From: a virus
Length of the DNA stretch: 32,373 bases
Direction: 5' to 3' (one strand)
Virus record (IMG/VR): IMGVR_UViG_3300025480_000181
Both the position numbers and the translations under genes were made by a program. This document shows, piece by piece, positions 1,441-24,221 of this stretch. The notes under the pieces were generated by a model. The model searched no databases, was not told the DNA's origin, and saw nothing but the letters and a program-made list of their open reading frames with translations. Each line of letters begins with the position of its first letter. Position 1 is the stretch's first letter.

Positions 1441-1692
1441 ATGCCGAAGACGAAGGCGACTATCGAAGAGGTCCGCCAAGCCGTTAAGGAGCATCCCGGA
1501 GAACCGCGCGAGTTCTACGTCGGCTACCTATCGAGCCGCCATACGTACGCGTCGATTCGGGAAGCCATCCGGCGGGCGGTAGCCGACGGGGACGTCGAGG
1601 TCAAGAAGACCGGGCCCCGCCGGAACAACCGCCGCCTCTACCCGAACCTACCGGAGGACCGCGGCGTTCGCTACCCGTGGCAGAAGGAGTAA
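1441..1692 (+). CDS. Small basic protein, possible winged-helix DNA-binding protein
   Basis: Helix-helix-helix then DVEVKK..RRLYP wing-like strands. TAG|ATG coupled to upstream gene. Confidence 0.55.
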   Translation: MPKTKATIEEVRQAVKEHPGEPREFYVGYLSSRHTYASIREAIRRAVADGDVEVKKTGPRRNNRRLYPNLPEDRGVRYPWQKE

Positions 1693-1697
1693 AGAAG

Positions 1698-2027
1698 ATG
1701 TCGAGGGACTACCAGCTCTGGCTCGCGACGGACGGGGAGATTCGGGTCGACGTCGAGATGCCTACGCCCGCCCGACGGGGACGGAAGGGCGGAACGATGT
1801 GGCTCCCGAGCGCGGAGAACTTTACTCACGAGGAGGCCGAGGAGGTCCTCACGATGATTGCGAACCGTAGCCGGTTCAATAACCGGACGATGTACCTTAA
1901 CGGCGGGGACGCTCTCGGGAGCGGGCCGTGGTCGTCCGTCCGGGAACACGAGCTTCTTACGAAGTTCGAGGCCGACGTTCGGGCGGTCGGAGAGCGGGTT
2001 AAGGAACGGACGAACAAGCGCGAGTAG
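1698..2027 (+). CDS. Hypothetical protein (cassette)
   Basis: Start reassigned to ATG 1698 after GAAGGAGTAA. Ends KRE*. Confidence 0.75.
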   Translation: MSRDYQLWLATDGEIRVDVEMPTPARRGRKGGTMWLPSAENFTHEEAEEVLTMIANRSRFNNRTMYLNGGDALGSGPWSSVREHELLTKFEADVRAVGERVKERTNKRE

Positions 2028-2046
2028 AGGAAAAGGAGAAAGGAAG

Positions 2047-2310
2047 ATGGCGGGGAAGAAGTGGGCGAAACACGTACACATGAAGCGCGGCGGTCTCCAT
2101 GGTTGGTGCGAGCACTGCCCGGCGCGGGTCCGTCACGCGGCCCTGCGGACCGGGGCCCGGGAGGACGGAGCGGCCGTAATCTGGATGCGACTGAACTACC
2201 TCGCGAACGTCGCGAACCGGGAGAACAACTTCCGGCTCCACGAAGTCGCGCGGACCGACCAGCGTTGGGTCGCGGCGAACCTCGAGCATAAGGACCTTCG
2301 GCGGGAGTAG
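2047..2310 (+). CDS. Hypothetical basic protein with CxxC (cassette)
   Basis: ATG 2047 after a purine tract. Ends RRE*. Confidence 0.75.
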   Translation: MAGKKWAKHVHMKRGGLHGWCEHCPARVRHAALRTGAREDGAAVIWMRLNYLANVANRENNFRLHEVARTDQRWVAANLEHKDLRRE

Positions 2311-2314
2311 ACCG

Positions 2315-2533
2315 ATGCCTCGTCTCTCCGAATCCCGTCGGGGCGTTAGCGCGGGCGGGGCGGTCCTCGGGACTATCGTCCTGATTATCGGCATCCTCGG
2401 ACTCCTCCTGACGACCTCGAGTTCGTTCTTCGGGATGTCCGTCGACCTCGGGGCGGTCTGGAGTAACGTAATCGCGTGGGGCTTCCTCGTCGTCGGGCTC
2501 TTCGTAGCCGTCGTCTGCTGGTGGAGGCTCTAG
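2315..2533 (+). CDS. 2-TM hairpin protein with prepilin-like leader
   Basis: SRRG|VSAGGAVLG then two hydrophobic helices. Confidence 0.75.
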   Translation: MPRLSESRRGVSAGGAVLGTIVLIIGILGLLLTTSSSFFGMSVDLGAVWSNVIAWGFLVVGLFVAVVCWWRL

Positions 2534-2535
2534 CG

Positions 2536-2904: not shown

Positions 2905-3390
2905 ATGCCGAAGAAGGGCTACCCGCGCTATCCCGGACGAAGGCTCCGGTCGTCGGAGTTCGAAGGGGTCGTCGTAGTCCCTCGCTGGTCCTCCGCTTCG
3001 TACGGGGACCTATGGAATCTCGGGAATCGAATCTCGGGCGGCTTCGGGTTCTGGAGGTCGAGCGAACTCTTTAACCACCCGCACCCCGAGGTCATGGTAA
3101 AGGCGTGGTTCGACGCCCTTCGGGAGAAGGGGTATTCGCCGGAGGACGCGGTCCTCTACGGCGACTGGTCGGACGGCCGGCATATCGCCGACAACCTTAC
3201 ACCGACGACTACCTACGCCGAGTTTAAGGCGATGGTAAAGCGGAACGCTCGGTCGGTCGAAGAGGTCCATAAGGAGAACGCGAGCTACCGCGAGAACCCG
3301 GAGGTTAAGCGGGAAATCGAGATTTACCTCGGCCCGTACCATACCGAGGAGTACACCGATTTCCAGCGCCGTGCGATGATGTCGGAGTAA
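2905..3390 (+). CDS. Hypothetical protein, paralogue of 19086..19523
   Basis: Junction start. Shared LG..SGGFG.W and GDW..GRH..D motifs. Confidence 0.8.
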   Translation: MPKKGYPRYPGRRLRSSEFEGVVVVPRWSSASYGDLWNLGNRISGGFGFWRSSELFNHPHPEVMVKAWFDALREKGYSPEDAVLYGDWSDGRHIADNLTPTTTYAEFKAMVKRNARSVEEVHKENASYRENPEVKREIEIYLGPYHTEEYTDFQRRAMMSE

Positions 3391-3394
3391 GAAG

Positions 3395-3604
3395 ATGGCG
3401 ACTACCTACTTAGTCCTCGTAACCGACCGTCGCGCGTACTCGGCCTATAAGGTCTACCGCGCGGGGATTCGTACGCGGAAGGAAGCTATCGCTATCGCGA
3501 AGCGGTACGCGAAGCGGCGGCACGACCAGACGAAGGTTACCCGCCTCCCCGGATACGTTACCGTCTGGGAATCCTACCGCCCCGACTTCGTTCGGAGGGA
3601 GTAG
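3395..3604 (+). CDS. Hypothetical microprotein (cassette)
   Basis: Bounded by junction motifs. Ends RRE*. Confidence 0.75.
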   Translation: MATTYLVLVTDRRAYSAYKVYRAGIRTRKEAIAIAKRYAKRRHDQTKVTRLPGYVTVWESYRPDFVRRE

Positions 3605-3847
3605 ATGGTCGAACAGGTCAAGATGACGATTATCTGCGACGGGGCGACCGATGCCGTTCAGCGTGCTATGGCCGAGGCGATGTATGGCGCGGCGGCTCAG
3701 GTCTGGCGGGCGTGGCACCATAACTCGAAGGAACCCGACCTCGGCCTCGACCTGATGGTCGCGACTGACGAAGCAGGGAACGACCTCCTTCATCCCGGGT
3801 ATAAGGTCGACCAGTCTCGCCTCGACCGGACCGTTCGGAGGGAGTAG
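3605..3847 (+). CDS. Hypothetical microprotein (cassette)
   Basis: Exact junction on both sides. Confidence 0.8.
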   Translation: MVEQVKMTIICDGATDAVQRAMAEAMYGAAAQVWRAWHHNSKEPDLGLDLMVATDEAGNDLLHPGYKVDQSRLDRTVRRE

Positions 3848-4219
3848 ATGCCGCTAAAGTACCCCGAGTCCGAGTACGGCGAGTACTACAACGCCGAAGG
3901 TAAGCGGGTTCGCTACCCCTCGCGATTGTTCAAGAACGACCGGGCATCCGACGTCAATCGAGCTACCGATGGCGCTCTCGGGCGGACGCCGACCGGAGTC
4001 CTCCGGACGATTCGGGACGAAATACGGCGTACCTATTTGTTCGTGCGCGATACGTACGGCGTGCAGGCACCGGACTATAACGGACCCGACGCGGTCCAGT
4101 ACTTCGGCCGACCCCATTCGCCGGAGTTCGTTCGGAGCCAGAAGATAGAATCCGCGGCTATCAATCGGATTACCGCGGAGCTACGAAAGCGCGAAGGTTC
4201 GGCCGCCCGGAGGGAGTAG
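3848..4219 (+). CDS. Hypothetical protein (cassette)
   Basis: Exact junction on both sides. Confidence 0.8.
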   Translation: MPLKYPESEYGEYYNAEGKRVRYPSRLFKNDRASDVNRATDGALGRTPTGVLRTIRDEIRRTYLFVRDTYGVQAPDYNGPDAVQYFGRPHSPEFVRSQKIESAAINRITAELRKREGSAARRE

Positions 4220-4393
4220 ATGCATCCGCTCGCTATCGGTCTCGGAATCCTCCTCTTCCTCGCGGGTATCGCGCTTCTCTTCCTCGGCGCGGTCGCGGCT
4301 ATCTTTACGATAGGGGGCTTCTTCGCTATCGGCGTCGGCGGCTGGCTCGTCATCGGCGGCGGGGTCCTCATCCTCGCGGGGGTCTTCCTATGA
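4220..4393 (+). CDS. 57-aa 2-TM membrane protein (absent from ORF track)
   Basis: Translated by hand: MHPLAIGLGILLFLAGIALLFLGAVAAIFTIGGFFAIGVGGWLVIGGGVLILAGVFL*. Starts at a junction ATG; ATGA overlap with the next gene. Confidence 0.8.
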   Translation: MHPLAIGLGILLFLAGIALLFLGAVAAIFTIGGFFAIGVGGWLVIGGGVLILAGVFL

Positions 4394-4605
4394 AGGAGAG
4401 TCTCGTCCTCAAGCGAATCGACGATAAGATAGACGAGGCGGTTAAGGCGGCGCAGGACCCGCGGGCCGATTCGATGACCCGCTACGGCCGGCAGATGTTC
4501 GCGAACGGCCTACGCCTCGCTCGCGATATGATTGCTACGGACGATGACCTAGCCTTCCCCGCCCTTACGCCCCGAGAGATGGCTCGACGGGCTCGGAGGG
4601 AGTAG
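4390..4605 (+). CDS. Hypothetical helical microprotein (cassette)
   Basis: ATGA overlap. Ends RRE*. Confidence 0.75.
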   Translation: MKESLVLKRIDDKIDEAVKAAQDPRADSMTRYGRQMFANGLRLARDMIATDDDLAFPALTPREMARRARRE

Positions 4606-4848
4606 ATGGTCGAACGCGAATCCCGTTACGGATTCCTCCGTCACTACGCGCAGGGTTGGGTCCTCGATAGCGTCTACGATACCGAGACGGAGGCCCGGAA
4701 GGTTGCCGAGAAGGAGACGGAGTCTCCCCCGGACGCTGAGGGCGTTCTTCTCGTTAAGCTCCTCGGCTCCGTCTCGAAGGGAAGGTACCGCTCCTACGAC
4801 CCGTTCCCGGAGGGGAACTTTACGATGACGCCGGTTCGGAGGGAGTGA
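4606..4848 (+). CDS. Hypothetical microprotein, paralogue of 19524..19742
   Basis: YDTETEARKVAE...LLVKLLG. Ends RRE*. Confidence 0.8.
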   Translation: MVERESRYGFLRHYAQGWVLDSVYDTETEARKVAEKETESPPDAEGVLLVKLLGSVSKGRYRSYDPFPEGNFTMTPVRRE

Positions 4849-7082: not shown

Positions 7083-8807
7083 ATGAAGCAGATACTAGCG
7101 TTCGTGATAGGGGTAGCTCTCTTGGTCGACGTCTCTCTCTTCGTCGGCCTCGGGTTCGGTTTCGGAGCCCTCTCCGTGACCGGCTCGAACAATCTACAGA
7201 CCTGTAACTCGTCGGACCAGTACTGCTGGACGATGAGCCCGGGTTGGGCCTCCCCCGATAAGCAGCAGGGAATCCAAATCAATATCGAGTCGAGCGTCCA
7301 GCAGGGAGCGAATCCGATTACGACGATGCTCTCGGGGGACCAGAGTACCTCGGTCAGCTTCGGTATGTACGCGCAACTTTCTCCGTACGACGCCTGCCCT
7401 CGGTCGGGCGCTTGGCAGGGCGGTTACGAAGCGTGGTGGGTTATCGTCTGGCCCCAGTCCGTCTCGGGGTCTATCGACGGGACGCAGTTCACGGGCTCGA
7501 CCTGGTCGGGGCAGAACCTCGCCCAGAACGATAGTATCTCGGCGGGCCTCGCGGACCTAGTCGGTTGCCAAGCCGGTACGGGATACAACGATAACGGACC
7601 GACCGGGAACCTCTATACGCATACGGTAACGCTTACCGGGCTCTACCCCGTCATGACGATGAATCTCTACTTCGGTACGTACGGACAGTGGTGCGATAAG
7701 TACGCGGGTTCCGTTACGAACCAATGCTACGGTCTCTCGCAGGCGATTACCGAAACCTACGGGGCCGGAACGGGGAATAACGGAGGCTGGAACGCCGAAG
7801 CCTCGGCCTCGTTCGTCTGGCAGTCCGCGCAGGCTTCCTTCCAGTTCGTCGACCCGCAGAACAACTATAACGGCGGGACGCTAACCGCGATTTTCTATAC
7901 CGCCTATAACGGGGCGAACGGCTACAAGTTCTCTATCGATACCCCGTCGGAACGGCCGAACGGCGGCCAGCTCGATACGAACTTCGCGAATAACCCGATG
8001 ACGATTCCGAACTTCTGTACTACGGGATGCGAGTACAAGTGGGCTATCCCGAAGACCCTCGATACGAACCTCTCGGGGCACGACGTCCAATGGGACCTTT
8101 GGTCCGGAGTCCTCTCGGCCTCGACGGTAGCGGAGCAGATAACGCAGTTCACCGTTATCAATCCACTCTACGCTCCGACGACCCCCGTCGTTACCTATAC
8201 GAGTAGCGGAGCGGGCATCTACCCGGCGGTCGGCGATACGGTTACCCTGACCGTCTACTCGAACGCCTCGCAGGACTCGGGGATGGTCCAGAGCATCGAC
8301 GTCGAGGTCTACTACCTCTCCCCGGGGCAGGGCGTATCGTCCGCGCCTTCGTGCGGTTCGGCTCCGGCTTGGGTGACGCCCTGCCCGAACGGGCAAATCC
8401 TCGTCGTAACGCACGACGGAAAGAACGCGGTCGGGACGTACACCTTTAAGGTAAACCCGCCCATCGGAGATACGGCTATCGCGGTCGCGGCGGTATCCGC
8501 CTCGAATATCTCCCCGTCGCTCTTCGGCTACCAACTTATCAGCATTAAGGCTTCCGACTGCGCGCCGGGCGCTACCTGCGACCCGCTTCAGTCGGGGGTA
8601 ACGACTTGGGAGATTATCGGGCCGATACTCCTGATGGGGGCTTTCATCCTAGGGGCGGTCCTCCTCGTCCTACTCGTTCCGATACCGCCGTGGGTCCGCT
8701 TCGCGCTACCTATCGCGGTCGTAGCCATACTGATACTCCTCTATGCCCTCGGCTGGATAACGGGGCTCTTCGTACCCGGCGGAGCCTTTAACTCGGCGGT
8801 GGCTTAG
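7083..8807 (+). CDS. Large Cys-containing surface glycoprotein, possible virion spike/adhesin
   Basis: N-terminal signal/TM, ~470-aa Ser/Thr/Gly/aromatic ectodomain with 12 Cys, two C-terminal TMs. Confidence 0.8.
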   Translation: MKQILAFVIGVALLVDVSLFVGLGFGFGALSVTGSNNLQTCNSSDQYCWTMSPGWASPDKQQGIQINIESSVQQGANPITTMLSGDQSTSVSFGMYAQLSPYDACPRSGAWQGGYEAWWVIVWPQSVSGSIDGTQFTGSTWSGQNLAQNDSISAGLADLVGCQAGTGYNDNGPTGNLYTHTVTLTGLYPVMTMNLYFGTYGQWCDKYAGSVTNQCYGLSQAITETYGAGTGNNGGWNAEASASFVWQSAQASFQFVDPQNNYNGGTLTAIFYTAYNGANGYKFSIDTPSERPNGGQLDTNFANNPMTIPNFCTTGCEYKWAIPKTLDTNLSGHDVQWDLWSGVLSASTVAEQITQFTVINPLYAPTTPVVTYTSSGAGIYPAVGDTVTLTVYSNASQDSGMVQSIDVEVYYLSPGQGVSSAPSCGSAPAWVTPCPNGQILVVTHDGKNAVGTYTFKVNPPIGDTAIAVAAVSASNISPSLFGYQLISIKASDCAPGATCDPLQSGVTTWEIIGPILLMGAFILGAVLLVLLVPIPPWVRFALPIAVVAILILLYALGWITGLFVPGGAFNSAVA

Positions 8808-8823
8808 GGGAGGAGAAAAGAAA

Positions 8824-10035
8824 ATGAGCGCACAGGTCGGCGGAGTACTAACGGCGGTCGGAGCTATCGGGCTCGTTATCGGGATTCTCGGAGCGTTCGG
8901 TATCGTTCCCGGTCTCGCGGTAACCTGCGTCTCGAACTGCGGTACCGGGATTACTCCCTCGTTCTCGGTATCCCAGAACGGGTATGCGATTTACCTGAAC
9001 GATACGTCCCACTGGGCGAACTCGGCCGATAGGAACGGCTACCTGACGTTAAGCGTCAATTGGGGCGATAGTACGCCGGCCTCGGCCTTTACGCCCCCGA
9101 ATAACCAGCTCCCTATCTCGCACATGTTCGAGCACGTCTACGTCGCGGCCGGGACCTATACGGTAGCAGAGACTATCGCGCACGAACAATGCGCCGGCGG
9201 GCGGGGCGGCGTCCACTGCAAGACGACCGATATCGTCGCGCAGGGTCAGTTCGCCATCTCGGGCATCGGGGGGCAGAACAAGTACGTCCCGGGCTTTACC
9301 TATACGACTGCGACGGGGAACGTCGTTAACGTTAAGGATACCTCGACGACCTACGGCTCCCCGACCCTGACCTCGATTAAGTTCGTCTGGGGCGACGGGT
9401 CTACGAACAGCCCGACGGCGCTCGGGTTCTCCCTCTCGCATACCTACGCCGCCGCCGGGAACTATACCGCTACGGAGACGATATCGTGGACCTACGTCGG
9501 CGAGCCCTTCTCGGCGCCGTTCTCGACTACGATACCGGTAGGCTGCTCCAGTTGTACGAACGTAGTGACCGTTAACGTAGACTTTTCGACGAGCTTCGTA
9601 AACTACACGCTGGCGGTAAAGGATACCTCGACGACCGTCGGCTCTCCGACGGTTACGGGTCTAGCGCTCGCTTGGGGCGACGGCCAGACGGGTTCGGCGA
9701 AGGCGCTCGGGGCTAACTTTACCCATACCTACTCGACGTACGGGAACTACTCGCTTACCGAGACCGTATCGTGGACCTACTCGGGGAACTCGTACTCGGC
9801 GACCTCGAACGCTACGGTATCGCTCCCCTGCTTCGGGACTTGCGGAACGAAGACGAACACGACGACGAACTCGACCTTCTCGTTCAACCTCGTAACGGGA
9901 GTCCTTATCGTCGGGTTCGGAACGCTCGCCCTCCTCGGGTTCCTCGTAATGCGGTTCCCGGTCTACGGAACGGTCATCATCCTCGTCATGTTCGCGCTCG
10001 GCGGGGCCATCGGCTACGTAGTCGGGGGTCTCTAG
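8824..10035 (+). CDS. Membrane-anchored protein with three PKD repeats
   Basis: Three W-G-D-[GS]...H-x-Y...G-x-Y-[TS]-x-x-E-T motifs. N-terminal TM, two C-terminal TMs. Confidence 0.85.
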   Translation: MSAQVGGVLTAVGAIGLVIGILGAFGIVPGLAVTCVSNCGTGITPSFSVSQNGYAIYLNDTSHWANSADRNGYLTLSVNWGDSTPASAFTPPNNQLPISHMFEHVYVAAGTYTVAETIAHEQCAGGRGGVHCKTTDIVAQGQFAISGIGGQNKYVPGFTYTTATGNVVNVKDTSTTYGSPTLTSIKFVWGDGSTNSPTALGFSLSHTYAAAGNYTATETISWTYVGEPFSAPFSTTIPVGCSSCTNVVTVNVDFSTSFVNYTLAVKDTSTTVGSPTVTGLALAWGDGQTGSAKALGANFTHTYSTYGNYSLTETVSWTYSGNSYSATSNATVSLPCFGTCGTKTNTTTNSTFSFNLVTGVLIVGFGTLALLGFLVMRFPVYGTVIILVMFALGGAIGYVVGGL

Positions 10036-10064
10036 GGACGCTCTAAGGGAAAGGAGGAAAGAAG

Positions 10065-11063
10065 ATGAATCAGTGGTCGGGAATCCTAGCGGTAATCGGG
10101 GTCGTCGGGCTCCTCGTCGGAATCTTCGGGGCTATCGGGACGATTCCCGGCCTCGCAGTAACCTGCCCGACGACCGCTATCGTAGGGGGTAGCACGGCGT
10201 TACCCCGCTGCGGCGGTACTCCCGAGATTACGGCGTACCTTACGGTCGCCCCGGGAACGACCGGCGCGAACGTTACCATCTCGGGGGCCTACTACCCCTC
10301 GGGGATGACGCAACCCGTCGTCTCGTTAAGTATCGATAGCGCGTCGGTCGCGCTCACCGCGACTACGAAGGTAAACTCGGTAGACGCCTATACGAATGGG
10401 CCCGCGTTCTACACGCTCTCACCGGGGAACCATACCGCAAAGGCGACCGCTACGTCTTCGTATCTCGGAACGAAGTACTCGGCTACGAGCGAGTCTATCG
10501 CGTTCATCGTCGGGTCGAACTCGCGGTGCCAGATAAACTGCAATACGACGAAGTGGTCGATTACCCCCGCGTTCAAGTATACCTCGACCTCGGCCGGGGT
10601 CCTTACGGTAATCGATACCTCTACAGTAAGCGGCGTTACCGGGGTCACGTTCGCTTGGACCTTCGGGGACGGCAGTACCGGCTCGGGTTCGAATGCGACC
10701 CATACCTACGCCGCGAGCGGGGGCTATACGGTAACGGATAAGGTTACCGGAACGACGTACCTCGGGGTAGCTACGGCGAGCGCAAGCCACGTCGTGAACA
10801 TTACGGTAGGGACGACGACTCCGAACAATCAGACCTGCGGAACCCCGACGACGCCGATATGCGTCTCGACGGGTCCTCCTCCGCCAGCTCCGTCGGTTGA
10901 GCCGTTTAACGCCGCGACGGGCCTGCTGATTATCGGCTTCGGCGGGCTCTTCGTAGCGGCGATTATCCCGGGGAACCCGGAATGGCGGGCTATCCTCGCT
11001 ATCGTCGCGCTCGTCGTCGGCTTCGGGGCAGGGTACTTCGTCGGAGGACTCGGCCCGCTCTAG
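10065..11063 (+). CDS. Membrane-anchored PKD-domain protein, paralogue of 8824..10035
   Basis: FAWTFGDGSTGSGSNATHTYAASGGYTV. Shares N-terminal PGLAVTC and C-terminal FN..TG.LI.GFG with 8824..10035. Confidence 0.85.
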   Translation: MNQWSGILAVIGVVGLLVGIFGAIGTIPGLAVTCPTTAIVGGSTALPRCGGTPEITAYLTVAPGTTGANVTISGAYYPSGMTQPVVSLSIDSASVALTATTKVNSVDAYTNGPAFYTLSPGNHTAKATATSSYLGTKYSATSESIAFIVGSNSRCQINCNTTKWSITPAFKYTSTSAGVLTVIDTSTVSGVTGVTFAWTFGDGSTGSGSNATHTYAASGGYTVTDKVTGTTYLGVATASASHVVNITVGTTTPNNQTCGTPTTPICVSTGPPPPAPSVEPFNAATGLLIIGFGGLFVAAIIPGNPEWRAILAIVALVVGFGAGYFVGGLGPL

Positions 11064-11121
11064 GGCGGCCTGAAGGAAAGGAGAAAGGGGAGGAACCCGA
11101 GCGGAGGGGGAGGGAGCGAAG

Positions 11122-13148: not shown

Positions 13149-13150
13149 CG

Positions 13151-13753: not shown

Positions 13754-13757
13754 ATGG

Positions 13758-13925
13758 ATGCCGACCCCTCGGTTCGTTCTGCTCGCAGTCGGGGTTATCC
13801 TCGACGTCTTCGGGTTCCTCCTCCTCTTTACGGCGTACCTCTCCGTACCGGTTCCCCAATGGGAGGTCGGAGCGGCGCTCCTCGCTATCGGGATAGTCCT
13901 CGATATCGCGGGGGTCTTAGCGTAG
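13758..13925 (+). CDS. 55-aa 2-TM membrane protein (absent from ORF track)
   Basis: Translated by hand: MPTPRFVLLAVGVILDVFGFLLLFTAYLSVPVPQWEVGAALLAIGIVLDIAGVLA*. Codon style matches the other membrane genes, unlike the overlapping 13754 frame. Confidence 0.7.
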   Translation: MPTPRFVLLAVGVILDVFGFLLLFTAYLSVPVPQWEVGAALLAIGIVLDIAGVLA

Positions 13926-13939
13926 GGGAGGAGACGTAG

Positions 13940-14281: not shown

Positions 14282-14283
14282 CG

Positions 14284-14556
14284 ATGACGTACGTAGTTCA
14301 CGAAGAGTACCTCGCCCCGAACCCTCTCGGCCCGGGGGCCGACGCCGGGGGAGGAATCCCGAGGGGATACTTCCTCCTCTCGCGCGAGAAGTACTACGAG
14401 GACCACTCGGCCGCGATTCGTTCCGCGAAGCGGCGGGTACGGAATCCGAAGACCGAGCGGGTAACGATTACGCTCGTACCGAACCGGTCGGACCAACCGA
14501 GCCAGACGCTCTGGGCGTGGGAACGGAAGCGGACCTCGCCTATCGGGAGGGAGTAG
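14284..14556 (+). CDS. Hypothetical microprotein (cassette)
   Basis: Ends GRE* with exact motif. Confidence 0.75.
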   Translation: MTYVVHEEYLAPNPLGPGADAGGGIPRGYFLLSREKYYEDHSAAIRSAKRRVRNPKTERVTITLVPNRSDQPSQTLWAWERKRTSPIGRE

Positions 14557-14558
14557 CG

Positions 14559-14813
14559 ATGCCGCGACAGCCGTACCGGATGCGAAAGGCGGTCGAGAAG
14601 TTTACCCGGCCGAACCGGTACGACCCTTCTCTCCAGATGCCGATGGAGCGCCTCGAGTGCGGTCACGTAATCGCCGACCGGGACGTCCTCTATGGGAACG
14701 AGAAGTCCGTACAGGTCGGTATGGTCTTCCGGGCGGTTAGCGGCGAGAAGCCGCTCCGCCGATGCTACCAGTGCGGTCGGGAGGCCGAGACTTCGGTCGT
14801 CGGGAGGGAGTAA
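14559..14813 (+). CDS. Zn-ribbon-like microprotein (cassette)
   Basis: LECGH...RCYQC. Motif on both sides. Confidence 0.75.
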   Translation: MPRQPYRMRKAVEKFTRPNRYDPSLQMPMERLECGHVIADRDVLYGNEKSVQVGMVFRAVSGEKPLRRCYQCGREAETSVVGRE

Positions 14814-14817
14814 GAAA

Positions 14818-15096
14818 ATGACGTCGGTCGAATGGGTCTACTTTAAGAACAAGCCGGGGAACGCGGTCGAGATTACGGCGGAGATGGGGACCGTCTCGAT
14901 AGTTCGCTACGAGCATGGTATCGCCGAGGCTCCCTCGTGGAGGCTCGACGTAAACCCCGGAGGAGCCCGCGAGATTGGCCGCCTCCTTATCGAGGCGGCC
15001 GAGATGACGGGCTACGGGCAGACCGAGGAGCAGAAGGAACGGCACGAGGCCCGTCGAAAGCACCAGCAGCGAGCTTTCGAGGGACGGAGGGAGTAG
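14818..15096 (+). CDS. Hypothetical microprotein (cassette)
   Basis: ATG 14818 after motif. Ends RRE*. Confidence 0.78.
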   Translation: MTSVEWVYFKNKPGNAVEITAEMGTVSIVRYEHGIAEAPSWRLDVNPGGAREIGRLLIEAAEMTGYGQTEEQKERHEARRKHQQRAFEGRRE

Positions 15097-15324
15097 ATGG
15101 TCTTCGACCGGGTCGTCTCGGTAAAGCCTATCGAGCAGTATCGGAAGGAACTCCTCGACCTCTTTAAGGTCGAGGAAATCTTCGAGGTACGCCTCGGGGA
15201 GTATCACTCGACGAGCGAGACGATTCTTCAGCTTACCGGCGACGCGGCCCGTCAGCTCGCCGTACGCCTCGTAGCGAGGACGAACCCGGTCGAGAAGCGA
15301 CGAGACCTTTCGCGGAGGGAGTAG
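15097..15324 (+). CDS. Hypothetical microprotein (cassette)
   Basis: Exact junction on both sides. Confidence 0.78.
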   Translation: MVFDRVVSVKPIEQYRKELLDLFKVEEIFEVRLGEYHSTSETILQLTGDAARQLAVRLVARTNPVEKRRDLSRRE

Positions 15325-15326
15325 CA

Positions 15327-15554
15327 ATGGTCTCCGGTAGCCTCTACGTTCGGCGTAGCGAGGTCGTCGAGGCTCGCTTCCCGGACGACGAGCTATTCGT
15401 CTGGGTCCGGACCGCGATTGGGCAGGAGGTCGCTCTCCATATCCACGAGGACGCGCTCTCCTATATCTTCGAGAAGGCCGGACGGAACGGTCGCGATAAC
15501 GTTCGTAAGGCGCTCGAGCGCGCCGAGGGCGCGGTCGCCCCGAGGAGGGAGTAG
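15327..15554 (+). CDS. Hypothetical microprotein (cassette)
   Basis: Exact junction on both sides. Confidence 0.78.
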   Translation: MVSGSLYVRRSEVVEARFPDDELFVWVRTAIGQEVALHIHEDALSYIFEKAGRNGRDNVRKALERAEGAVAPRRE

Positions 15555-15803
15555 ATGACCGGTAGGCTCGTTTACGCCGTAGTCGTCCGGGGTACCGAAC
15601 GTTCCGAGAGCCCGTCTATCTTCGGGGTCTACTCGCATAGCTATCCCGCGGAGCAGGCCGCGGCGGAGCGGAACCGGCATGCGAGCAGCGGAATCGTTCA
15701 CGACGTCTTCGGTTATCGTCTCGTTAGCCCGAAGGTCGACTACCGGGGAACGAACGCCCGGGACGCCCGGGACGCGGCCGAGTTCGCGCTACGGGCGGAG
15801 TAG
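15555..15803 (+). CDS. Hypothetical microprotein (cassette)
   Basis: Junction start. Ends RAE*. Confidence 0.75.
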   Translation: MTGRLVYAVVVRGTERSESPSIFGVYSHSYPAEQAAAERNRHASSGIVHDVFGYRLVSPKVDYRGTNARDARDAAEFALRAE

Positions 15804-15814
15804 GGGGGAGAACG

Positions 15815-16051
15815 ATGCCCGAGGACTACCACGAAACCGCCGCCGAGGAGAAGCTAACCACGCCTCCGCCCCCTCCGGCGAAGCCGAAGGAGAAGTCCCT
15901 CGGCGACCAAATCTGGTCCGATATCCTCGGCTTCGGGAAGAGGGCCGGGTCGTACGCGAAGGACCGGTCGAAGAAGGCGAGCTACCATGCGAAGCGGACG
16001 GCGGGTAAGGTCGACGCGGAACTACGTCGTCGAAAGTTACTGGAGGAGTAA
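15815..16051 (+). CDS. Pro/Lys-rich microprotein
   Basis: TPPPPPAKPK. Ends LEE* (GGAGGAGTAA). Confidence 0.7.
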   Translation: MPEDYHETAAEEKLTTPPPPPAKPKEKSLGDQIWSDILGFGKRAGSYAKDRSKKASYHAKRTAGKVDAELRRRKLLEE

Positions 16052-16053
16052 CG

Positions 16054-16236
16054 ATGCCCGAAGAGTACCCCCTCCGCGTTAAGCTCGAGTGTCGGAAGTG
16101 CGGGCGCGAGGTTCACGTCGACGGACGATACGTCCGTCACCAGGGCGGCGCGGTCTCCTTCATAGTCCATAACACGGATAAGCCGTGCTACCTCTGTACC
16201 TCGGACGAGCGGGCGGACGCCGCTCGGAGGGAGTAG
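16054..16236 (+). CDS. Zn-ribbon microprotein (cassette)
   Basis: CRKC...CYLC. Ends RRE*. Confidence 0.78.
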   Translation: MPEEYPLRVKLECRKCGREVHVDGRYVRHQGGAVSFIVHNTDKPCYLCTSDERADAARRE

Positions 16237-16518: not shown

Positions 16519-16530
16519 GGAAAGAAGAAA

Positions 16531-17217
16531 ATGTCGGCAAAAGTATGGGTCGGAATCGGAGCCGCTATCGCCATCGTCGTACTGCTCTTCCTGACGATTT
16601 GCGCGCAGGGCGCGCCGTCGGCACCGACGGCCTCGACGGGAGCTACGCTAAACCCGTCGACGGCGCAGTCGGTTCAGGTCACCCTGAAGACGCAGTTCTA
16701 CTCGTTAGTCGCGCCGAATACGATTTACCAGATAGGCGCGAAGTTCATCTACTCGGTCGTCGAGACCGGCGGGGGCGGGAATCCGGTAATCCTCGCTACG
16801 AACCTTACCGCCTCGGCGACGTCTATCTCCGTCGGGTCGAATAACCTCTATACGATGATAGGGGCGTTCACGGTAACGACCGTCGCGGTCTGCTCGTCCC
16901 CGCTGACCTGCGGGACGGCGCCGGAGAACCTGACGATTACCGCGACGGCGGACGTCTCAACGTACCTCGCCTTCTGGACGAGCCCTACGTCGACTATCGT
17001 ATTCTCGAACGTCGCTACCTATACGAACGTTCCGGCGGTCGTCGCGCCGAACCCGAGTTCGTACTACCTCGAACTCTACCTCCCGATAACCGGGATTTTC
17101 TTCGTCGGGCTCCTAGCGTTTACGATAATGCGTCCGAACGACTACTCGGTCGTCTTGACCTTTATCGCGGGTATCGCTATCCCGGTCGAGTTCATCCTCT
17201 GGGCGTACGTGCTCTAA
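16531..17217 (+). CDS. Membrane-anchored surface protein
   Basis: N-terminal TM, Thr-rich beta domain with a Cys pair, two C-terminal TMs. Purine leader. Confidence 0.8.
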   Translation: MSAKVWVGIGAAIAIVVLLFLTICAQGAPSAPTASTGATLNPSTAQSVQVTLKTQFYSLVAPNTIYQIGAKFIYSVVETGGGGNPVILATNLTASATSISVGSNNLYTMIGAFTVTTVAVCSSPLTCGTAPENLTITATADVSTYLAFWTSPTSTIVFSNVATYTNVPAVVAPNPSSYYLELYLPITGIFFVGLLAFTIMRPNDYSVVLTFIAGIAIPVEFILWAYVL

Positions 17218-17247
17218 GGGAGTAACCGAGAGAAGAAGGGGAAGAAA

Positions 17248-18195
17248 ATGAAGCGGAAGGGGAGCTACGCGACGCTCGTTCTCGTCGCGCTCGTCGCCGT
17301 AGTCTTCGGTCTTAGCGCCGTACACGCCGCACCGACCGCGAACCTGACCGGGTCGAGCGGACTCCAGCCGGACGCCGTCCCGCCGGCACCGACGGGCCTT
17401 ACCGCGACGGCGACGAACGCTACGGTTATCCATCTCGCTTGGACGAACCCGGTCGGGGCGCTAACCGATAACGAGTACTACGAGTTCGCAGCCGCCGCCT
17501 GTTCTGGCGGCCATAGTACCGTCGATATCGGTTCCGTCGTAACCTCCGCGAACGTCGGCTCGCTCTCTTCGGCGACCTCGTACGGCTTCGAGGTCCTCGC
17601 TAAGAATGCGACCGGCTTCTCGGCTCCGAGTACCTGCCACTCCGGGATGACCTACCCCGACGTTCCGACGAGCCTCGTAGCGAACGTCGCTAGCGATACC
17701 GAAATCGACCTGACGTGGACGAACCCGTCGGGGACGCTTACGGATACCTTCGTAAACGTCTACGTCGCGTCTACCTGTACCGGGAGCCCAACGACGCTCG
17801 ATATGGCCGGGGTCGTAACGGCCTACGCGGATATCGACCTCGCGCAGACGACGACGTATAGCTATACCATTGCCGCCGCGGATACGACCGGGACGGGTGC
17901 GGCCTCGGCCTGCGTTTCGGCGACTACGCAAGCTACCCCGGGCGGCGGTCCGCCCGGCGGCGGTAGTCCGCCCGGCGGAAGCGGTAACTCTACGAACGCT
18001 ACGGGTACCCCGAACTACCCGACGAACGGACCCGCGCTAGCGTTCCCCGCGTTTACCCCGGCGGGCCTTCTCGTACAGAACTTCCTCGGTATCGTATCGC
18101 TTATCGGCGGCGCGGTCCTCTTCGCGTTCCGTCGGTTTATCCTCGGGCCGACCTTCCTCGGAATCGGGCTCGTCCTCCTCTTCGTCGTCTTCTGA
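17248..18195 (+). CDS. Membrane-anchored protein with two fibronectin type III repeats
   Basis: Signal peptide. P.AP..L.A....I.L.WTNP...Y.F.V.A twice. GGGPPGGGSPPGG linker, two C-terminal TMs. Confidence 0.85.
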   Translation: MKRKGSYATLVLVALVAVVFGLSAVHAAPTANLTGSSGLQPDAVPPAPTGLTATATNATVIHLAWTNPVGALTDNEYYEFAAAACSGGHSTVDIGSVVTSANVGSLSSATSYGFEVLAKNATGFSAPSTCHSGMTYPDVPTSLVANVASDTEIDLTWTNPSGTLTDTFVNVYVASTCTGSPTTLDMAGVVTAYADIDLAQTTTYSYTIAAADTTGTGAASACVSATTQATPGGGPPGGGSPPGGSGNSTNATGTPNYPTNGPALAFPAFTPAGLLVQNFLGIVSLIGGAVLFAFRRFILGPTFLGIGLVLLFVVF

Positions 18196-19085: not shown

Positions 19086-19523
19086 ATGAAGTCCGTAACG
19101 ATGGCGAGAGCGAACGAAGTCTGGGCCCTCGGGAAGGAACTCTCGGGCGGCTTCGGCCTCTGGGGGACTATCGACCAGCTAACGTCCCTCGACGGCTTTA
19201 CCGAGTGGAAGCGTCTCGCGGTCGTAGAGGGCTGGATTAACGGGGCGAGGTCGCTCGGCTTTACCGATACCGATGCGGCGGCGCTCGGGGACTGGCGGAT
19301 AGGCCGGCACTTCGTCGATACGGCTTCCTTCTGGAACCTCGACCCGCCCGAGGTCGTTCGGAAGAAGGCGCAGAAGGCCGCGGTCGATGCGATTAGCTAC
19401 GCCGTAAAGGACGAGGGTGGTATCGCGGAGGTCAAGCGACAGCTCGTTCTGAACTATACGAACTACTACCCCGTTAGCTACGCGAACCGACTAGGGCGTA
19501 CCCCGTCGGTTAGGAGGGAGTAG
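19086..19523 (+). CDS. Hypothetical protein, paralogue of 2905..3390
   Basis: WALGKELSGGFGLW and GDWRIGRHFVD. Ends RRE*. Confidence 0.8.
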   Translation: MKSVTMARANEVWALGKELSGGFGLWGTIDQLTSLDGFTEWKRLAVVEGWINGARSLGFTDTDAAALGDWRIGRHFVDTASFWNLDPPEVVRKKAQKAAVDAISYAVKDEGGIAEVKRQLVLNYTNYYPVSYANRLGRTPSVRRE

Positions 19524-19742
19524 ATGCCGTTCTATCCGGTCGGTCGGAAGGCGAAGGGCGAACTCCCGATGTACGCTGTTCTTCGGAGCTATAACGAAGG
19601 GACCGCGATAGAACGATACTTCGATACCGAGCGGGCGGCGAAGGACTGGGCCGAGAGCCATCTTCTTCCGACCGACGAGATGCTCCTCGTCGTTAAGCTA
19701 CTCGGCTACGCGAGGCCCGTTACGGCCCCGAGGAGGGAGTAG
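19524..19742 (+). CDS. Hypothetical microprotein, paralogue of 4606..4848
   Basis: FDTERAAKDWAE...LVVKLLG. Ends RRE*. Confidence 0.8.
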   Translation: MPFYPVGRKAKGELPMYAVLRSYNEGTAIERYFDTERAAKDWAESHLLPTDEMLLVVKLLGYARPVTAPRRE

Positions 19743-20090: not shown

Positions 20091-20092
20091 CG

Positions 20093-20578
20093 ATGTCCGA
20101 CCCCGACGAGGACTACGATATCGACGAGGAGATGCGTCACGAGGCCCTTGTCGAGGCCGCGCACGACGCGCGCGAGGAGGAGCGGCGCGCGAAGTGCCCT
20201 GATTGCGGGCAGAGCCACGAAGGGCTCGACCCCGATACGATTCGGAACCTCCACGCCGCGGCGACGAACTGGTATAGCGACTCGAACCGGCCGGGGTCGA
20301 GGGTCCTAACGAACGTCGAGCACGGCGGTATCCACGGAGAGAAGCCGGACCCCCGTTGGGCCGCCGCGATGGACCATCTCGGGAAGCTCGTCAAGACCTA
20401 CTTCTTCGATAAGTACCACGAGGTCTACCTCGAGAAGTACGAGAACGGCGCTATCGTTTACTACGTCCCGACCGGCTGGTGGTACTACTATCCGAAGGAC
20501 ATGATGGACGACGCCTTCGACTTCGCCCGCTCCCGGGGAACCCATTCGAGGGCGCTCAACCGTATCTTCGGAGACTAG
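20093..20578 (+). CDS. Hypothetical protein (cassette)
   Basis: CPDC..H. Followed by an intergenic copy of the motif. Confidence 0.78.
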   Translation: MSDPDEDYDIDEEMRHEALVEAAHDAREEERRAKCPDCGQSHEGLDPDTIRNLHAAATNWYSDSNRPGSRVLTNVEHGGIHGEKPDPRWAAAMDHLGKLVKTYFFDKYHEVYLEKYENGAIVYYVPTGWWYYYPKDMMDDAFDFARSRGTHSRALNRIFGD

Positions 20579-20589
20579 GGAGGGAGTAG

Positions 20590-20880
20590 ATGACGAAGCG
20601 CTCGGTCGAGGCCGCGGAGAGGAGAATCCGGAAAGAGGTAGTCGGCTGGCTCCGCGCTACGTACGTCAAGAAGTCGCTCCGCGCCGAGGTGAACGTAGAC
20701 GAGGATACGCTCGACGATGGTCCGTACTTCTGGGCCTATATCTACGACGGGAAGAAGCTCGTCGCCGAAGGCTCGGGATGGTTCGAGCAGCAGACCGACC
20801 CGTTCGACGAGATGGAATCGGACCTGAACGAGAAAGGCTACCGTCGTATTCCTCTACGGAACCTGATACGGGAGGACTAG
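20590..20880 (+). CDS. Hypothetical protein (cassette)
   Basis: Motif start. Ends RED* TAG|ATG. Confidence 0.78.
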   Translation: MTKRSVEAAERRIRKEVVGWLRATYVKKSLRAEVNVDEDTLDDGPYFWAYIYDGKKLVAEGSGWFEQQTDPFDEMESDLNEKGYRRIPLRNLIRED

Positions 20881-21492: not shown

Positions 21493-21680
21493 GCCGTCTC
21501 GCCGAGCCTCCCGAACCTCCGCGCGAAACGCTACGGGGTCGCCTCTACCGATGCGAGCGATGCGGCTACGACCGGCGATTCTACCTCTCGCCGCCTATCG
21601 GCGAGCAACGGAGATGCCCGAAGTGCCGGCGCTACTCGCTCGAGCCGGTACGGGACGAGCGGGTCCTACGGAGGGAGTAA
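21489..21680 (+). CDS. Zn-ribbon microprotein (cassette)
   Basis: CERC...CPKC. ATGA overlap. Ends RRE*. Confidence 0.78.
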   Translation: MSRLAEPPEPPRETLRGRLYRCERCGYDRRFYLSPPIGEQRRCPKCRRYSLEPVRDERVLRRE

Positions 21681-21901
21681 TGCCCCGTCCTAACCCCCTT
21701 GACGAGCGGGAGGCCCGAATCCAGCGTGCCCACGACGCCTACCAGAAGGCCCGGGGAATCGCTGCCGCGGACCCGACCCCCGCGAACCTTACCGAGGAGA
21801 ACCGCCTCCATAAGGAGTACGTAACGCTTCTCTACGAGGAAGAGCCTTCTCCTAGACGGGAGCAGACCATCGAGGATTTCGCTTCGATACGGAGGGAGTA
21901 G
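21680..21901 (+). CDS. Hypothetical helical microprotein (cassette)
   Basis: TAATG overlap start. Ends RRE*. Confidence 0.75.
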   Translation: MPRPNPLDEREARIQRAHDAYQKARGIAAADPTPANLTEENRLHKEYVTLLYEEEPSPRREQTIEDFASIRRE

Positions 21902-23056
21902 ATGCCGAAGGTAATCGTAGTGCTCGCAATCGCGGCGACCGTCGTCATAGCGGCCTTCTCCGCGGCGACTACGATAGCGTACGGTTCCCTCGGCGCGCGG
22001 GGCGGGCTGTCGGTAGACGATACGAATAACTCGACCCTTCCCTCGCAGGACTTCCTCGGTACCCCGACGGTGAACGTAACGACCGTTCCTATGCTCTACG
22101 ACGACTCCGCGAGCTGGTTCTCGAACGGCTGCTCGTACAACGGGTCCGTACCGTATACGGTCCCGTTCCCCTCGAACGACCCGAACGCGACCCCCGGTAC
22201 CCAGATGGCCGTAGTAAACGCGCTCGGGCCAGGCTACGGTTGCGGGACGGGCTGGTTCGCCGAGGTCTGGAACTTTACGGCGAACGCGACCCTCGTCGCG
22301 GAGAACGATTGGTTTAACGTTACGACGAACTGGACCCTCTCGAATACCTCGGGAGAAGTCGTAGGGGTTAACTCGGTCTCCGTGACCGTTAGCTCGGAGA
22401 CCCTCTCGACGAACGGGACCTTCTCGCTCTACGTCGAGTTCCCGGGGAACCCGGTATCGCTCGGAACGACGAACGTTACGGTCGAGGCGGCGCCGCCGGT
22501 CTCGGTTCCCGCTACCTTCGGAGGGAACGGACGGGACGCGCGAGGAACCTTCCCTCCGGCGAACGTATCGCAGAACTTCGTTGCCGACCCGGCCCTCGAG
22601 CCCCAACTCGTCGGGGAGCAGTCGACGATATACTCCGACGCGGTAGCGGCGCCGGATGGTTGCTCGAATAGCGTCGCGAATAGTACTCCCGGCGTCCTAA
22701 CCGGTATCCCATTCCCCGAGCCCGGCGGGAACTACGAGCAGGCGCTCTTCGCGAACGCCGGCGAGGTCTCGGCCTGCTCCGGCGGCGACTACGGGATGCT
22801 CTTTACCTTCCTCGTCTCGACGCCGCTCTCGGCGGAGAACGATTGGTTCAACGTTACGACGACTTGGGTGACCCCGGGCGGGGCGACCGTTACCGGGTTT
22901 AGCGACTCCCTCGTAAGCGTCGTCCCGGGGAATCTCCCGGGCGGGTCGGAGAACGCGCTCCTCCTCGTCTACGTCGACTACGGGGCGGGAACCCCGACCG
23001 TCCTATCGTGCTCGATTACGGTACAAGCGACCTCGCAGGTGGTCGTCGTAGGGTAG
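21902..23056 (+). CDS. Secreted glycoprotein with two internal repeats
   Basis: Signal/TM. AENDWFNVTT occurs twice (31-bp DNA repeat, one mismatch, 22298-22328 and 22832-22862). Many N-x-T/S sequons. Confidence 0.85.
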   Translation: MPKVIVVLAIAATVVIAAFSAATTIAYGSLGARGGLSVDDTNNSTLPSQDFLGTPTVNVTTVPMLYDDSASWFSNGCSYNGSVPYTVPFPSNDPNATPGTQMAVVNALGPGYGCGTGWFAEVWNFTANATLVAENDWFNVTTNWTLSNTSGEVVGVNSVSVTVSSETLSTNGTFSLYVEFPGNPVSLGTTNVTVEAAPPVSVPATFGGNGRDARGTFPPANVSQNFVADPALEPQLVGEQSTIYSDAVAAPDGCSNSVANSTPGVLTGIPFPEPGGNYEQALFANAGEVSACSGGDYGMLFTFLVSTPLSAENDWFNVTTTWVTPGGATVTGFSDSLVSVVPGNLPGGSENALLLVYVDYGAGTPTVLSCSITVQATSQVVVVG

Positions 23057-23067
23057 GAGAGAGTAGA

Positions 23068-23499
23068 ATGATTTTCGGACGACGACCCTCGGGGGCTACG
23101 GACGCGGAACTAATCTCGGCTTATATCGAGAGCCGAGTCGAGGAGAACCACTTCGAGTCGGAACTCGAGCACGAGCGTATCGAGAACGGGCCGGAGGCCG
23201 AGCATTGGTCCTTCGAATGGCGGGAGAACTACCGTACCCGTATCGAAGGAATCGAAGAACGTCTCGGGGCGGTCCGCGAGCGGATGGCCGATATTATCGA
23301 TGACCTCCGCGCTCGTAAGTACCGGCTTAACTTCGAGTATGAGGACGACCCGCTTACCGGGGCGCCTATCAATAAGGACCGTACCCATCTCTATACTATC
23401 CAGAAGGGACGACGGCGGTCCGACTTAATCGCGATAGAGTCGGTCGCGCGACGCCGTTTCCCGCCTACGGAGACGGGGCTAATACAGTGGAGGGAGTAG
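23068..23499 (+). CDS. Hypothetical acidic/coiled protein (cassette)
   Basis: ATG 23068 after GGAGAGAGTAGA. Ends WRE*. Confidence 0.78.
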   Translation: MIFGRRPSGATDAELISAYIESRVEENHFESELEHERIENGPEAEHWSFEWRENYRTRIEGIEERLGAVRERMADIIDDLRARKYRLNFEYEDDPLTGAPINKDRTHLYTIQKGRRRSDLIAIESVARRRFPPTETGLIQWRE

Positions 23500-23501
23500 C
23501 G

Positions 23502-23966
23502 ATGACGATAGCCGACGAGAAGCCGTACGCCTCGGACCTAAAGGAGATGGAGCGCGTCTGGGACGAATACGTCCGGAAGGAACTCGGCCGCGACTATCGG
23601 GGCGAGGTCCGCGACGGGGAGAATCCAAAGCGACGAGCCTCCATCGACCGTATCGATATCATCGACGGGGGGCCCGGGGGCCGCTACGACGTAACGCTCG
23701 TCGTCGTCCGGGTCGCCCGCCGGCACGGCGACCTCGAGACGCGGGACGGGGTCGTTTGGAAGCGGCGGTATGACGTTCTCGATAAGATGCTCGTCCGGGA
23801 CGCCGCGATACAGGAGAACCGTTCGATATCTGAATGGGAGCGGAACCGCCGGTCGGAGGACCTCTGGCGGAATACCCTGACCTACGATATTCAGGACTCG
23901 ATTCGCGAGGGTGGGTTCCCGAGCCTTCGGAGGATTCGAAGCGAGTACGCGTTCCCGAGGGAGTAG
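23502..23966 (+). CDS. Hypothetical protein (cassette)
   Basis: Motif on both sides. Ends PRE*. Confidence 0.78.
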   Translation: MTIADEKPYASDLKEMERVWDEYVRKELGRDYRGEVRDGENPKRRASIDRIDIIDGGPGGRYDVTLVVVRVARRHGDLETRDGVVWKRRYDVLDKMLVRDAAIQENRSISEWERNRRSEDLWRNTLTYDIQDSIREGGFPSLRRIRSEYAFPRE

Positions 23967-24221
23967 ATGCCGCGAAAGCCCCCCGAGTTCCTCGAGGAAG
24001 GATGCCCTGCCTGTACCTACCATTTTCTCTATAAGGGAACGGCGGATGGCTCGGGCTCAGGCGCGGGGGCGATTATCGCAATCGCGGCAGTCGCCATCGG
24101 TGCTACCGTTGCCGCCGGTCTTCTGGCCAATCGAAAGGTCCCGTGCCCTCGGTGCAAGAACCCTATTCGGCGAGGCATAGCCCAATGTCCCTATTGCTAC
24201 AGCTCGATCACATGGTCGTGA
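23967..24221 (+). CDS. TM plus Zn-ribbon microprotein, last junction-started ORF
   Basis: CPAC, hydrophobic helix, CPRC...CPYC. First GATC of the window at 24206. Confidence 0.65.
   Translation: MPRKPPEFLEEGCPACTYHFLYKGTADGSGSGAGAIIAIAAVAIGATVAAGLLANRKVPCPRCKNPIRRGIAQCPYCYSSITWS

Follow-up and report, generated by a model that had tools for sequence, protein, structure and literature searches.

Much of the gene repertoire of viruses and plasmids consists of small genes of unknown function, whose gain and loss are poorly understood, especially in archaea. Integron cassette arrays comprise IntI, attI and attC, the attC sites being imperfect palindromes (R''-L''...L'-R') at the 3′ ends of cassettes, together with a Pc promoter. 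Lambdoid phages and mycobacteriophages have recombination joints that are concentrated at the borders of genes, and it has been suggested that short sequences in common act as sites of crossover. T4-type phages carry promoter-early stem-loops (PeSLs; Arbiol et al. 2010, PMC2839356; Comeau et al. 2014, PMC4122927), and the haloarchaeal virus HGTV-1 has a similar motif, a TATA box plus an inverted repeat, before its open reading frames (ORFs) (PMC3950731). At the level of translation, termination-reinitiation couples archaeal and bacterial gene pairs at spacings of −8 to +10 nt (Haloferax, E. coli), most usually −4 and −1 nt; an intragenic Shine-Dalgarno (SD) sequence often contributes, and coupling collapses by ~20 nt (Huber et al. 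2019, PMC6728339; PMC10666635). Here we analyze the IMG/VR virus record IMGVR_UViG_3300025480_000181 (32,373 nt, the whole of which we call the window), where a long array of small genes, joined by copies of one short motif (GGAGGGAGTAGATG in its 14-nt form), sits in an 80–110 kb integrative element of an uncultured peat archaeon. The reading that we favor, with a probability of roughly two in three, is that the motif is an SD-stop-start coupling signal that also acts as a crossover point for gene-precise insertions and deletions (indels).

An earlier reading of the letters alone (the sequence-only reading) had proposed an array of small genes joined by one conserved junction, and counts bear this out. 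The 8-mer GGAGGGAG occurs 30 times in the window, 29 times on the plus strand (spanning 2894–23496; shuffle expectation 3.25, shuffle maximum 7) and once on the minus strand. The 11-mer GGAGGGAGTAG is present 22 times and the 14-mer 17 times exactly, and allowing up to two mismatches in the 14-mer gives 21 matches where 0.29 are expected. The motif copies are located as follows.

2894–23502, plus strand: array with the motif, bounded by the outermost full GGAGGGAG junctions
11528–11541, plus strand: exact 14-mer at the g23/g24 junction, left crossover point of a 2401-nt indel
2894, 3594, 3837, 4209, 4595, 6389, 11924 and 12604 (start positions), plus strand: other exact 14-mer copies, first half
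13383, 13743, 15086, 15544, 16226, 19513, 20579 and 21891 (start positions), plus strand: other exact 14-mer copies, second half
20579–20592, plus strand: perfect 14-mer wholly past the real stop of g48 (TAG, 20576–20578), its own TAG unused as a stop

We built a chain of 56 plus-strand genes from 169 to 24221, and hence 55 junctions. This chain agrees with independent gene calls on near-identical public contigs except at 1693–2310, which probably holds two genes (1698–2027 and 2047–2310, from the calls on contig L123). The full 8-mer lies no more than 24 nt 5′ of the start at 26/55 junctions, and a further 28 junctions have GGAGG, GGAG or GAGG within the same distance; at least GGAG or GAGG is found within 24 nt of 54 of the 56 starts. 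As had been proposed for an SD-type signal, GGAGG in the consensus precedes the ATG by 6 nt and is located at the 3′ end of the gene upstream. Upstream proteins terminate in RRE, WRE, GRE or PRE, and the claim that such genes often abut the next ATG holds for the 21 junctions with a gap of 0 nt, all of which (21/21) read TAG and then directly ATG. Nine more junctions have a gap of 2 nt and read GTAGCG-ATG or GTAACG-ATG. Overall, 41/55 gene gaps fall between −4 and +10 nt, and 44/55 between −4 and +12 nt, distances at which experiments on Haloferax and E. coli saw efficient termination-reinitiation (PMC10666635, PMC6728339). The motif had also been said to lie only at gene boundaries, which is nearly true; the exceptions are one plus-strand copy within g27 (12848) and the single minus-strand copy (16465).

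Several features indicate that the motif is conserved as nucleotides rather than as the end of a protein, in keeping with the earlier idea of a nucleotide-level stop, ribosome-binding site and start. Counted from the ATG, conservation is limited sharply to −11 to +3; outside it is at background, apart from weak preferences at −14 and −12 and for CCG or GTC as second codon. Before three genes the motif is not part of the upstream gene at all: g49 (11-nt gap), g54 (separate stop) and g23 (58-nt spacer). Since the TAG of the 14-mer at 20579–20592 is not the stop of the preceding gene, the motif appears to be kept as a nucleotide unit. Motif copies share up to 23 nt, and junction copies account for 163/227 occurrences of repeated 14-mers in the element. 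In L138/L139, a single-nucleotide polymorphism (SNP) at 13143 (A>G) makes the consensus 8-mer out of a variant junction. Copies are restricted to ~23 kb of the element: a flanking 9.7 kb on the left is free of them and joins its genes by ATGA overlaps, while 7.3 kb on the right has one.

The junctions show no sign of structure or of separate transcription units. An inverted-repeat scan of 1–24221 found no recurrent palindromes at junctions, and the motif, which is all purine except for its T and does not fold on itself, has neither dyad symmetry nor flanking inverted repeats. Accessibility is ordinary (predicted unpaired probability 0.42 at the motif, 0.40 at random sites), and Rfam gave zero matches. 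A junction hairpin or a structure masking the SD is excluded by the structure and inverted-repeat scans. Across the 24 kb there is no oligo-T run of five or more, and no intergenic gap holds an AT-rich, TATA-like stretch.

The small ORFs have a third-position GC content (GC3) of 0.78, the same as the core genes, and GC1 exceeds GC2 in 47/48. Because their codon-position composition equals that of conserved genes, they are very probably real genes. Their proteins range from 57 to 384 aa, and many of the genes start with ATGCCG or ATGGTCGA. The small array genes match no Pfam family and have no wider homologues; for g27, a search of 5.8 billion clusters returned nothing beyond its own 90% cluster, whereas g07 belongs to a family of ~50 clusters. 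An all-pairs protein comparison found only 3 of ~1500 pairs detectably related, and the tandem duplication of a single family is rejected on it.

Natural variants show that the array loses, or at least differs by, whole genes. Eleven near-identical element contigs from different samples differ from the window by ~10 SNPs, three small in-gene indels and three large indels (2401, ~2817 and 1770 nt), each of the large ones comprising 7–8 whole genes.

11539–13939, plus strand: block g24–g30 (7 genes, 2401 nt), absent from L124/L128; crossover inside GTAGATGCCG
11104–13920, plus strand: block g23–g30 (8 genes, ~2.8 kb), absent from L125; join at AGCG (4 nt)
14284–16053, plus strand: block g32–g38 (7 genes, 1770 nt), missing in L124/L128 and, independently, in L126; crossover in a variant junction

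Each of the six breakpoints is at most ~20 nt away from a start codon, and gene calls find the neighboring genes intact in every deletion product. As ~5.8% of the array is no more than 12 nt from a start, the probability of such placement by chance is ~4e-8 (six breakpoints) or ~2e-4 (counting three events), which is far from chance. The sequences used differ among the events. The 10 nt of GTAGATGCCG are common to a consensus junction (11535–11544) and a variant junction (13936–13945), and only in this event, one of three, does the crossover fall inside a consensus copy. The 1770-nt crossover lies in the variant junction (G/A)AGGAGTAACGATG, present at 14271–14286 and 16041–16056 with both copies reading GAGGAGTAACGATG, and the AGCG join in L125 is just 5′ of two similar SD regions. 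The suggestion that breakpoints lie at the motif therefore holds strictly for one event of the three; another used a different junction variant, and the remaining one only 4 nt 5′ of the SD. Deletion forms were assembled repeatedly (the L124 type in six contigs, the L126 type in two) and the repeats, at 10–17 nt, are far below assembly k-mers, so the deletions are not artefacts. Such gene-precise losses are thus found in natural populations with only a few other base differences.

The sequence-only reading had units being inserted, deleted and shuffled at the motif. The loss or presence of blocks between intact neighbors agrees with it, while no insertion of a foreign cassette, swap, replacement, reordering or circle is seen among the 11 contigs, only presence/absence. 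Nor was a cassette-specific recombinase or a defined cleavage site found, the three events having used three different sequences. One possible older event fits the junction pattern, in that g45 and g46 are adjacent while their respective paralogues g07 and g13 are split by five genes. The three small in-gene indels are a 26-nt insertion in g38 at 15972 (L125, L138), which shifts the frame and gives a called gene of 97 rather than 78 aa, an 18-nt deletion in g49 at 20709 (L125) and a 9-nt net deletion in g10 at 4039–4058 (L126).

How the host itself uses these signals was assessed in a 29.6-kb sample of host DNA. The earlier reading would have lost its force had the motif been equally frequent in the host; the 11-mer occurs 0 times in this sample against 22 in the window. 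The absence of the 11-mer thus does not refute that reading, but the SD core is used at operon-internal junctions of the host. GGAGGG lies upstream in 2/4 overlapping host gene pairs, and one host operon junction has the complete 8-mer, then 3 nt and ATG, in an ordinary ATGA overlap, with the spacing found in the array. First genes of the host have no SD and appear leaderless.

In the reading that we favor, the junction xGG-AGG-GAG-TAG, followed directly by ATG, would be a composite translation signal holding the stop of gene n, an SD core and the start of gene n+1. Some 50 small ORFan genes would then be translated serially, by termination-reinitiation, on one very long transcript without recognizable internal promoters or terminators. 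The same 14–23 nt, repeated ~20–40 times in direct orientation, are the main repeat of the element, and its copies would by that fact also serve as crossover points for microhomology-driven recombination. A crossover from junction to junction would remove (and in principle add or swap) whole genes while preserving the remaining stop, ribosome site and start. The data show where the motif lies, its spacing and its strand bias, the use of the same SD core by the host, and gene-precise indels among natural variants. From these patterns we infer actual coupling of translation, a single transcript, and recombination that serves gain as well as loss. One short sequence would plausibly fill two roles, chaining the translation of ~50 genes and keeping the products of crossover correctly punctuated.

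Several observations weigh against this reading. Conservation is roughly even over the 11–14 positions and extends to the GAG spacer codon and to the TAG of all 21 zero-gap junctions, and the TAG is retained before g49, where it is not the stop; a plain SD with any stop codon would need neither. To our knowledge, GGAGGGAG is unable to pair beyond GGAGG with the canonical archaeal anti-SD sequence, which may not be that of the host. The left part of the element and its relatives have tightly packed genes without the motif, joined through ATGA overlaps, so the motif is not required in this host. The observed crossovers bypassed the longest shared junction copies, one of them using only 4 nt, and under strict coupling selection alone would retain gene-precise deletions, so that the position of a breakpoint is no proof of a mechanistic hotspot. 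The even conservation of 14 positions could come from a narrow optimum for reinitiation, from homogenization by junction-to-junction recombination or from recognition by a factor.

Other explanations can be set beside this one. A bolder one, which we think possible but doubtful, is that the 14-mer is an exchange module kept for that purpose, through which genes are captured, duplicated, swapped between co-resident elements and lost while remaining expressed, and that it is held uniform by concerted evolution, possibly with a dedicated factor encoded by the element. Such a module might, just as tentatively, correspond at the level of translation to what PeSLs are in phages or attC sites in integrons. 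It seems unlikely that the motif is a translation signal only, with no role in recombination, and that indels are seen at junctions only since deletions elsewhere break the reinitiation chain and are lost. Coupling is highly distance-dependent in the archaeon tested (PMC10666635), so that a frame-breaking deletion would silence the downstream core genes g41 and g42, and one event has just 4 nt of identity. However, two of the three events have 10–16 nt of shared sequence exactly at the crossover, and the same 1770-nt deletion is found on L124 and L126 backgrounds that differ at other markers, which suggests recurrence or exchange. We likewise give a low probability to dedicated cassette exchange, integron-like in function, in which the 11–14-mer would be the site at which one of the two tyrosine recombinases, or an unknown protein, of the element captures, excises and reshuffles genes. 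The uniform conservation of the 14-mer with sharp edges, the TAG retained where it is unneeded, gene-precise indels in a nearly clonal population and ~45 lineage-specific small ORFans missing from relatives with the same core genes would all fit such exchange, as would tyrosine recombinases 11.6 kb to the left (L144 253–1305) and just right of the array in L130. Against this, the events used 10 nt, 13–16 nt (the variant junction) and 4 nt, a pattern of microhomology rather than of site-specific cleavage, at a motif that has no dyad symmetry or flanking inverted repeats. Gain, swap and reordering are unseen in the 11 contigs, 241 million metagenome records hold no second contig with an 83–93-aa gene between exact junctions, and the L130 integrase adjoins 189 nt also present in the host, which would be expected if the element integrates as a whole.

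Two further explanations carry still less weight. The motif might be an RNA-processing site, cut before each AUG to yield leaderless mRNAs such as the host seems to favor, or a site where a protein encoded by the element binds to regulate translation, and 17 copies abutting the ATG exactly, the apparently leaderless first genes of the host and conservation reaching past the SD core could be read in this way. We consider it improbable, given that there is no conserved structure (with unpaired probabilities close to those of random sites and no Rfam match), that Pfam and PHROGs searches found no nuclease or RNA-binding family in the element and that the host has the same 8-mer at an ordinary ATGA overlap. 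Least credible of all is that the motif is a relic of tandem duplication, in which one ancestral small gene was amplified with its leader and the coding parts then diverged. Two paralogous pairs (g07/g45 and g13/g46) and the shared ATGCCG or ATGGTCGA beginnings are what it would explain; yet hardly any protein pairs are related, lengths vary from 57 to 384 aa, and conservation is at background one base outside the motif, with no gradient of decay. The paralogous proteins are only 27–40% identical although their junctions are exact, so the motif must have been maintained, not merely inherited.

Among described systems, the closest in function would be PeSL-mediated modular shuffling in T4-type phages, along with the PeSL-like motif of HGTV-1. 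In both PeSL-bearing phages and this element, a short regulatory repeat stands before numerous ORFan genes, small and non-essential, of a hyperplastic region flanked by core genes, and close relatives differ by indels, with breakpoints in the repeat for PeSLs and at or next to the junctions here, such that the expression signal is kept. However, PeSLs are transcriptional (a sigma-70-like promoter plus a terminator hairpin) and ~50–80 nt long, whereas the present motif has 11–14 nt and no promoter or hairpin, would act on translation and belongs to an archaeal host. Mini-circles and gene replacement have been demonstrated for PeSLs, in contrast to presence/absence only in our contigs. Known termination-reinitiation pairs resemble these junctions in having the SD in the last codons of the upstream gene and stop and start a few nucleotides apart, and in some archaea it is reinitiation, not the first genes, that makes use of the SD (Huber et al. 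2019, PMC6728339; PMC10666635). They differ in their usual spacings of −4 and −1 nt and their variable sequence, compared with a 0-nt TAG/ATG spacing and a near-invariant 14-mer at ~20–40 unrelated gene pairs here. The 0-nt form with one fixed 14-mer is unusual.

With integrons the array shares a single orientation, small, mostly promoterless and unrelated genes, and gene-precise presence/absence. It lacks attC-like imperfect palindromes at its junctions, its crossover sequences are heterogeneous, and no integrase with attI stands at its head, the integrases of the element being set apart by position. No recombinase is found within the array among Pfam or PHROGs matches, so the view that this is not a classical integron stands. 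In lambdoid phages and mycobacteriophages the boundary sequences are few and weakly conserved, unlike an exact 14-mer found 17 times in 21 kb. If gain and exchange at the motif also proved true, the array would be a minimal, recombinase-free archaeal cassette system, and it would offer a simple design rule for gene shuffling in synthetic operons.

The array is set among more widely conserved genes and ends close to the boundary between the element and its host.

1–24052, plus strand: part of the mobile element, a unidirectional and GATC-free block of ~57 tightly packed genes, matching L123–L130 and L137–L139
within 2905–4848, plus strand: g07 and g13, split by five genes (g08–g12); paralogues of the adjacent pair g45–g46 (19086–19742)
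7083–11063, plus strand: core genes g20 (574 aa, Cys-rich, membrane-anchored), g21 and g22 (PKD-domain), conserved in distant relatives
16531–18195, plus strand: core genes g41 (228 aa) and g42 (315 aa, fn3)
24051–24239, no strand assigned: likely attachment region, 189 nt identical in the host (L131 9817–10005) and in L130, where the window passes from element to host
24240–32373, no strand assigned: host chromosome with unknown genes, an EcoRII-C-like nuclease, a DNA methylase, an IS6-family transposase and the start of FtsZ (identity to L131/L136, Pfam)

Distant relatives were recognized through g20, whose homologues have 41–63% protein identity and lie on contigs L001 and L002 and on one 98-kb JGI contig (3300035696, the relative at 63%). 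The core that they have in common with the window includes homologues of g01, g04, g16, g41, g20, g21/g22 and g42, and continues with a small gene, then TatC and then a giant protein. In the relatives the g41 homologue stands directly 5′ of the g20 homologue, and gene joins are ordinary 4-nt and 1-nt overlaps (ATGA-type). Because they share the core but have neither the motif nor the ~45 small genes, the array reads as a lineage-specific, hyperplastic expansion between conserved genes. The order of the 574-aa Cys-rich protein, PKD proteins, small gene, TatC and giant protein (2200–3960 aa) is kept in all relatives (window 7083–8807; L001 6139–17878; L128 16724–21155), a synteny suggestive of a surface apparatus exported by Tat, on an archaeal element of unknown type. 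The g20 protein (7083–8807) has membrane helices at its N- and C-termini, and its AlphaFold model (pLDDT 48) was too poor for a fold search. The conserved surface-protein genes have purine-tract leaders rich in GGA/GAA, without the junction motif (8808–8823, 10036–10064, 16519–16530 and 17218–17247), which look like a second leader type, for core genes.

Other strings of small genes came to light through g07, whose homologues (52–59% identity) lie on contigs of 34–40% GC (L147 1–1604, L148 1–2871, L149 1–2661). These have a repeated leader of their own, which takes in the start codon and the first codons after it; several genes, for instance, begin with ATGGTAGAT following an SD-bearing stretch that they share. 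The architecture is alike and the local junction different. That a cassette carries its junction along is unsupported, the local junction repeats of the g07 homologues being quite different. Among the 241 million metagenome records, scanning for two junctions 235–265 nt apart found only an unrelated 51-nt tandem repeat on contigs of 44–46% GC, and a 15-mer scan of genome contigs gave at least 120 single, scattered chance matches in unrelated bacteria. A phage GenBank collection, searched by DNA and by the 574-aa protein, and IMG/VR, searched by protein and by motif pair, gave zero matches.

The window joins two kinds of DNA. Positions 1–24052 match contigs of 55–110 kb (L123–L130, L137–L139) from many peat and bog metagenomes at 99.4–100% identity, and 24051–32373 are 100% identical to L131 and L136, contigs of 245–753 kb. 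The chromosome contigs (L131–L136, up to 753 kb) carry no element sequence at this site; they encode DNA polymerase D (PolD), FtsZ and PurP-type proteins, which makes the host an archaeon. It is probably a member of Thermoplasmatota, to which the Atlas clusters nearest to its PolD belong; this is a lead rather than a placement. In L130 (12150–14434) the 189-nt stretch is followed by a 205-aa ORF and a 202-aa tyrosine integrase. The sequence-only reading had pointed to the unseen left part of the element as the place to look for a recombinase, and a second tyrosine integrase (PF00589, 350 aa) indeed lies 11.6 kb left of the window start, on the other strand (L144 253–1305). The integrases and the host-identical 189 nt together indicate that the element is integrative. 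The window may show the element truly integrated, or the 189-nt repeat may have led the assembly to join the two. At this site L128 and L129 have a different 335 nt, and L136 ends within the 189-nt stretch.

In its free form the element goes on past 24052, adding further small genes, TatC and a protein longer than 2474 aa. It is of interest in itself, at 80–110 kb, abundant in peat metagenomes and with almost no known families, TatC, giant proteins and complete avoidance of GATC: Pfam and PHROGs searches of ~80 element proteins gave only PKD, fn3, TatC, the two tyrosine integrases and weak matches, and the element may be an undescribed type of archaeal virus or plasmid. GATC is absent from at least 41 kb of the element (window 1–24052; L144 1–11600; L129 12152–19418), compared with ~159 sites in the 29.6 kb of adjoining host DNA (318 over both strands), a sign that a restriction or methylation system specific to GATC is strongly avoided. 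L125 is wholly unlike the other element contigs on the left side of L123 position 567, which is ~2.35 kb to the left of where the window starts, and its divergent sequence there does contain GATC; a second boundary, a rearrangement or a chimera could account for this. ARAGORN calls a 90-nt tRNA-Gly(TCC) at 21553–21642 on the minus strand, opposite g51/g52, which is probably a false positive as Rfam finds no tRNA there at its gathering threshold. Finally, a host island at 27064–31284 holds the EcoRII-C-like nuclease, the 432-aa DNA methylase, an HTH protein and the IS6-family transposase, and the called lengths of its transposase and methylase differ among host contigs.

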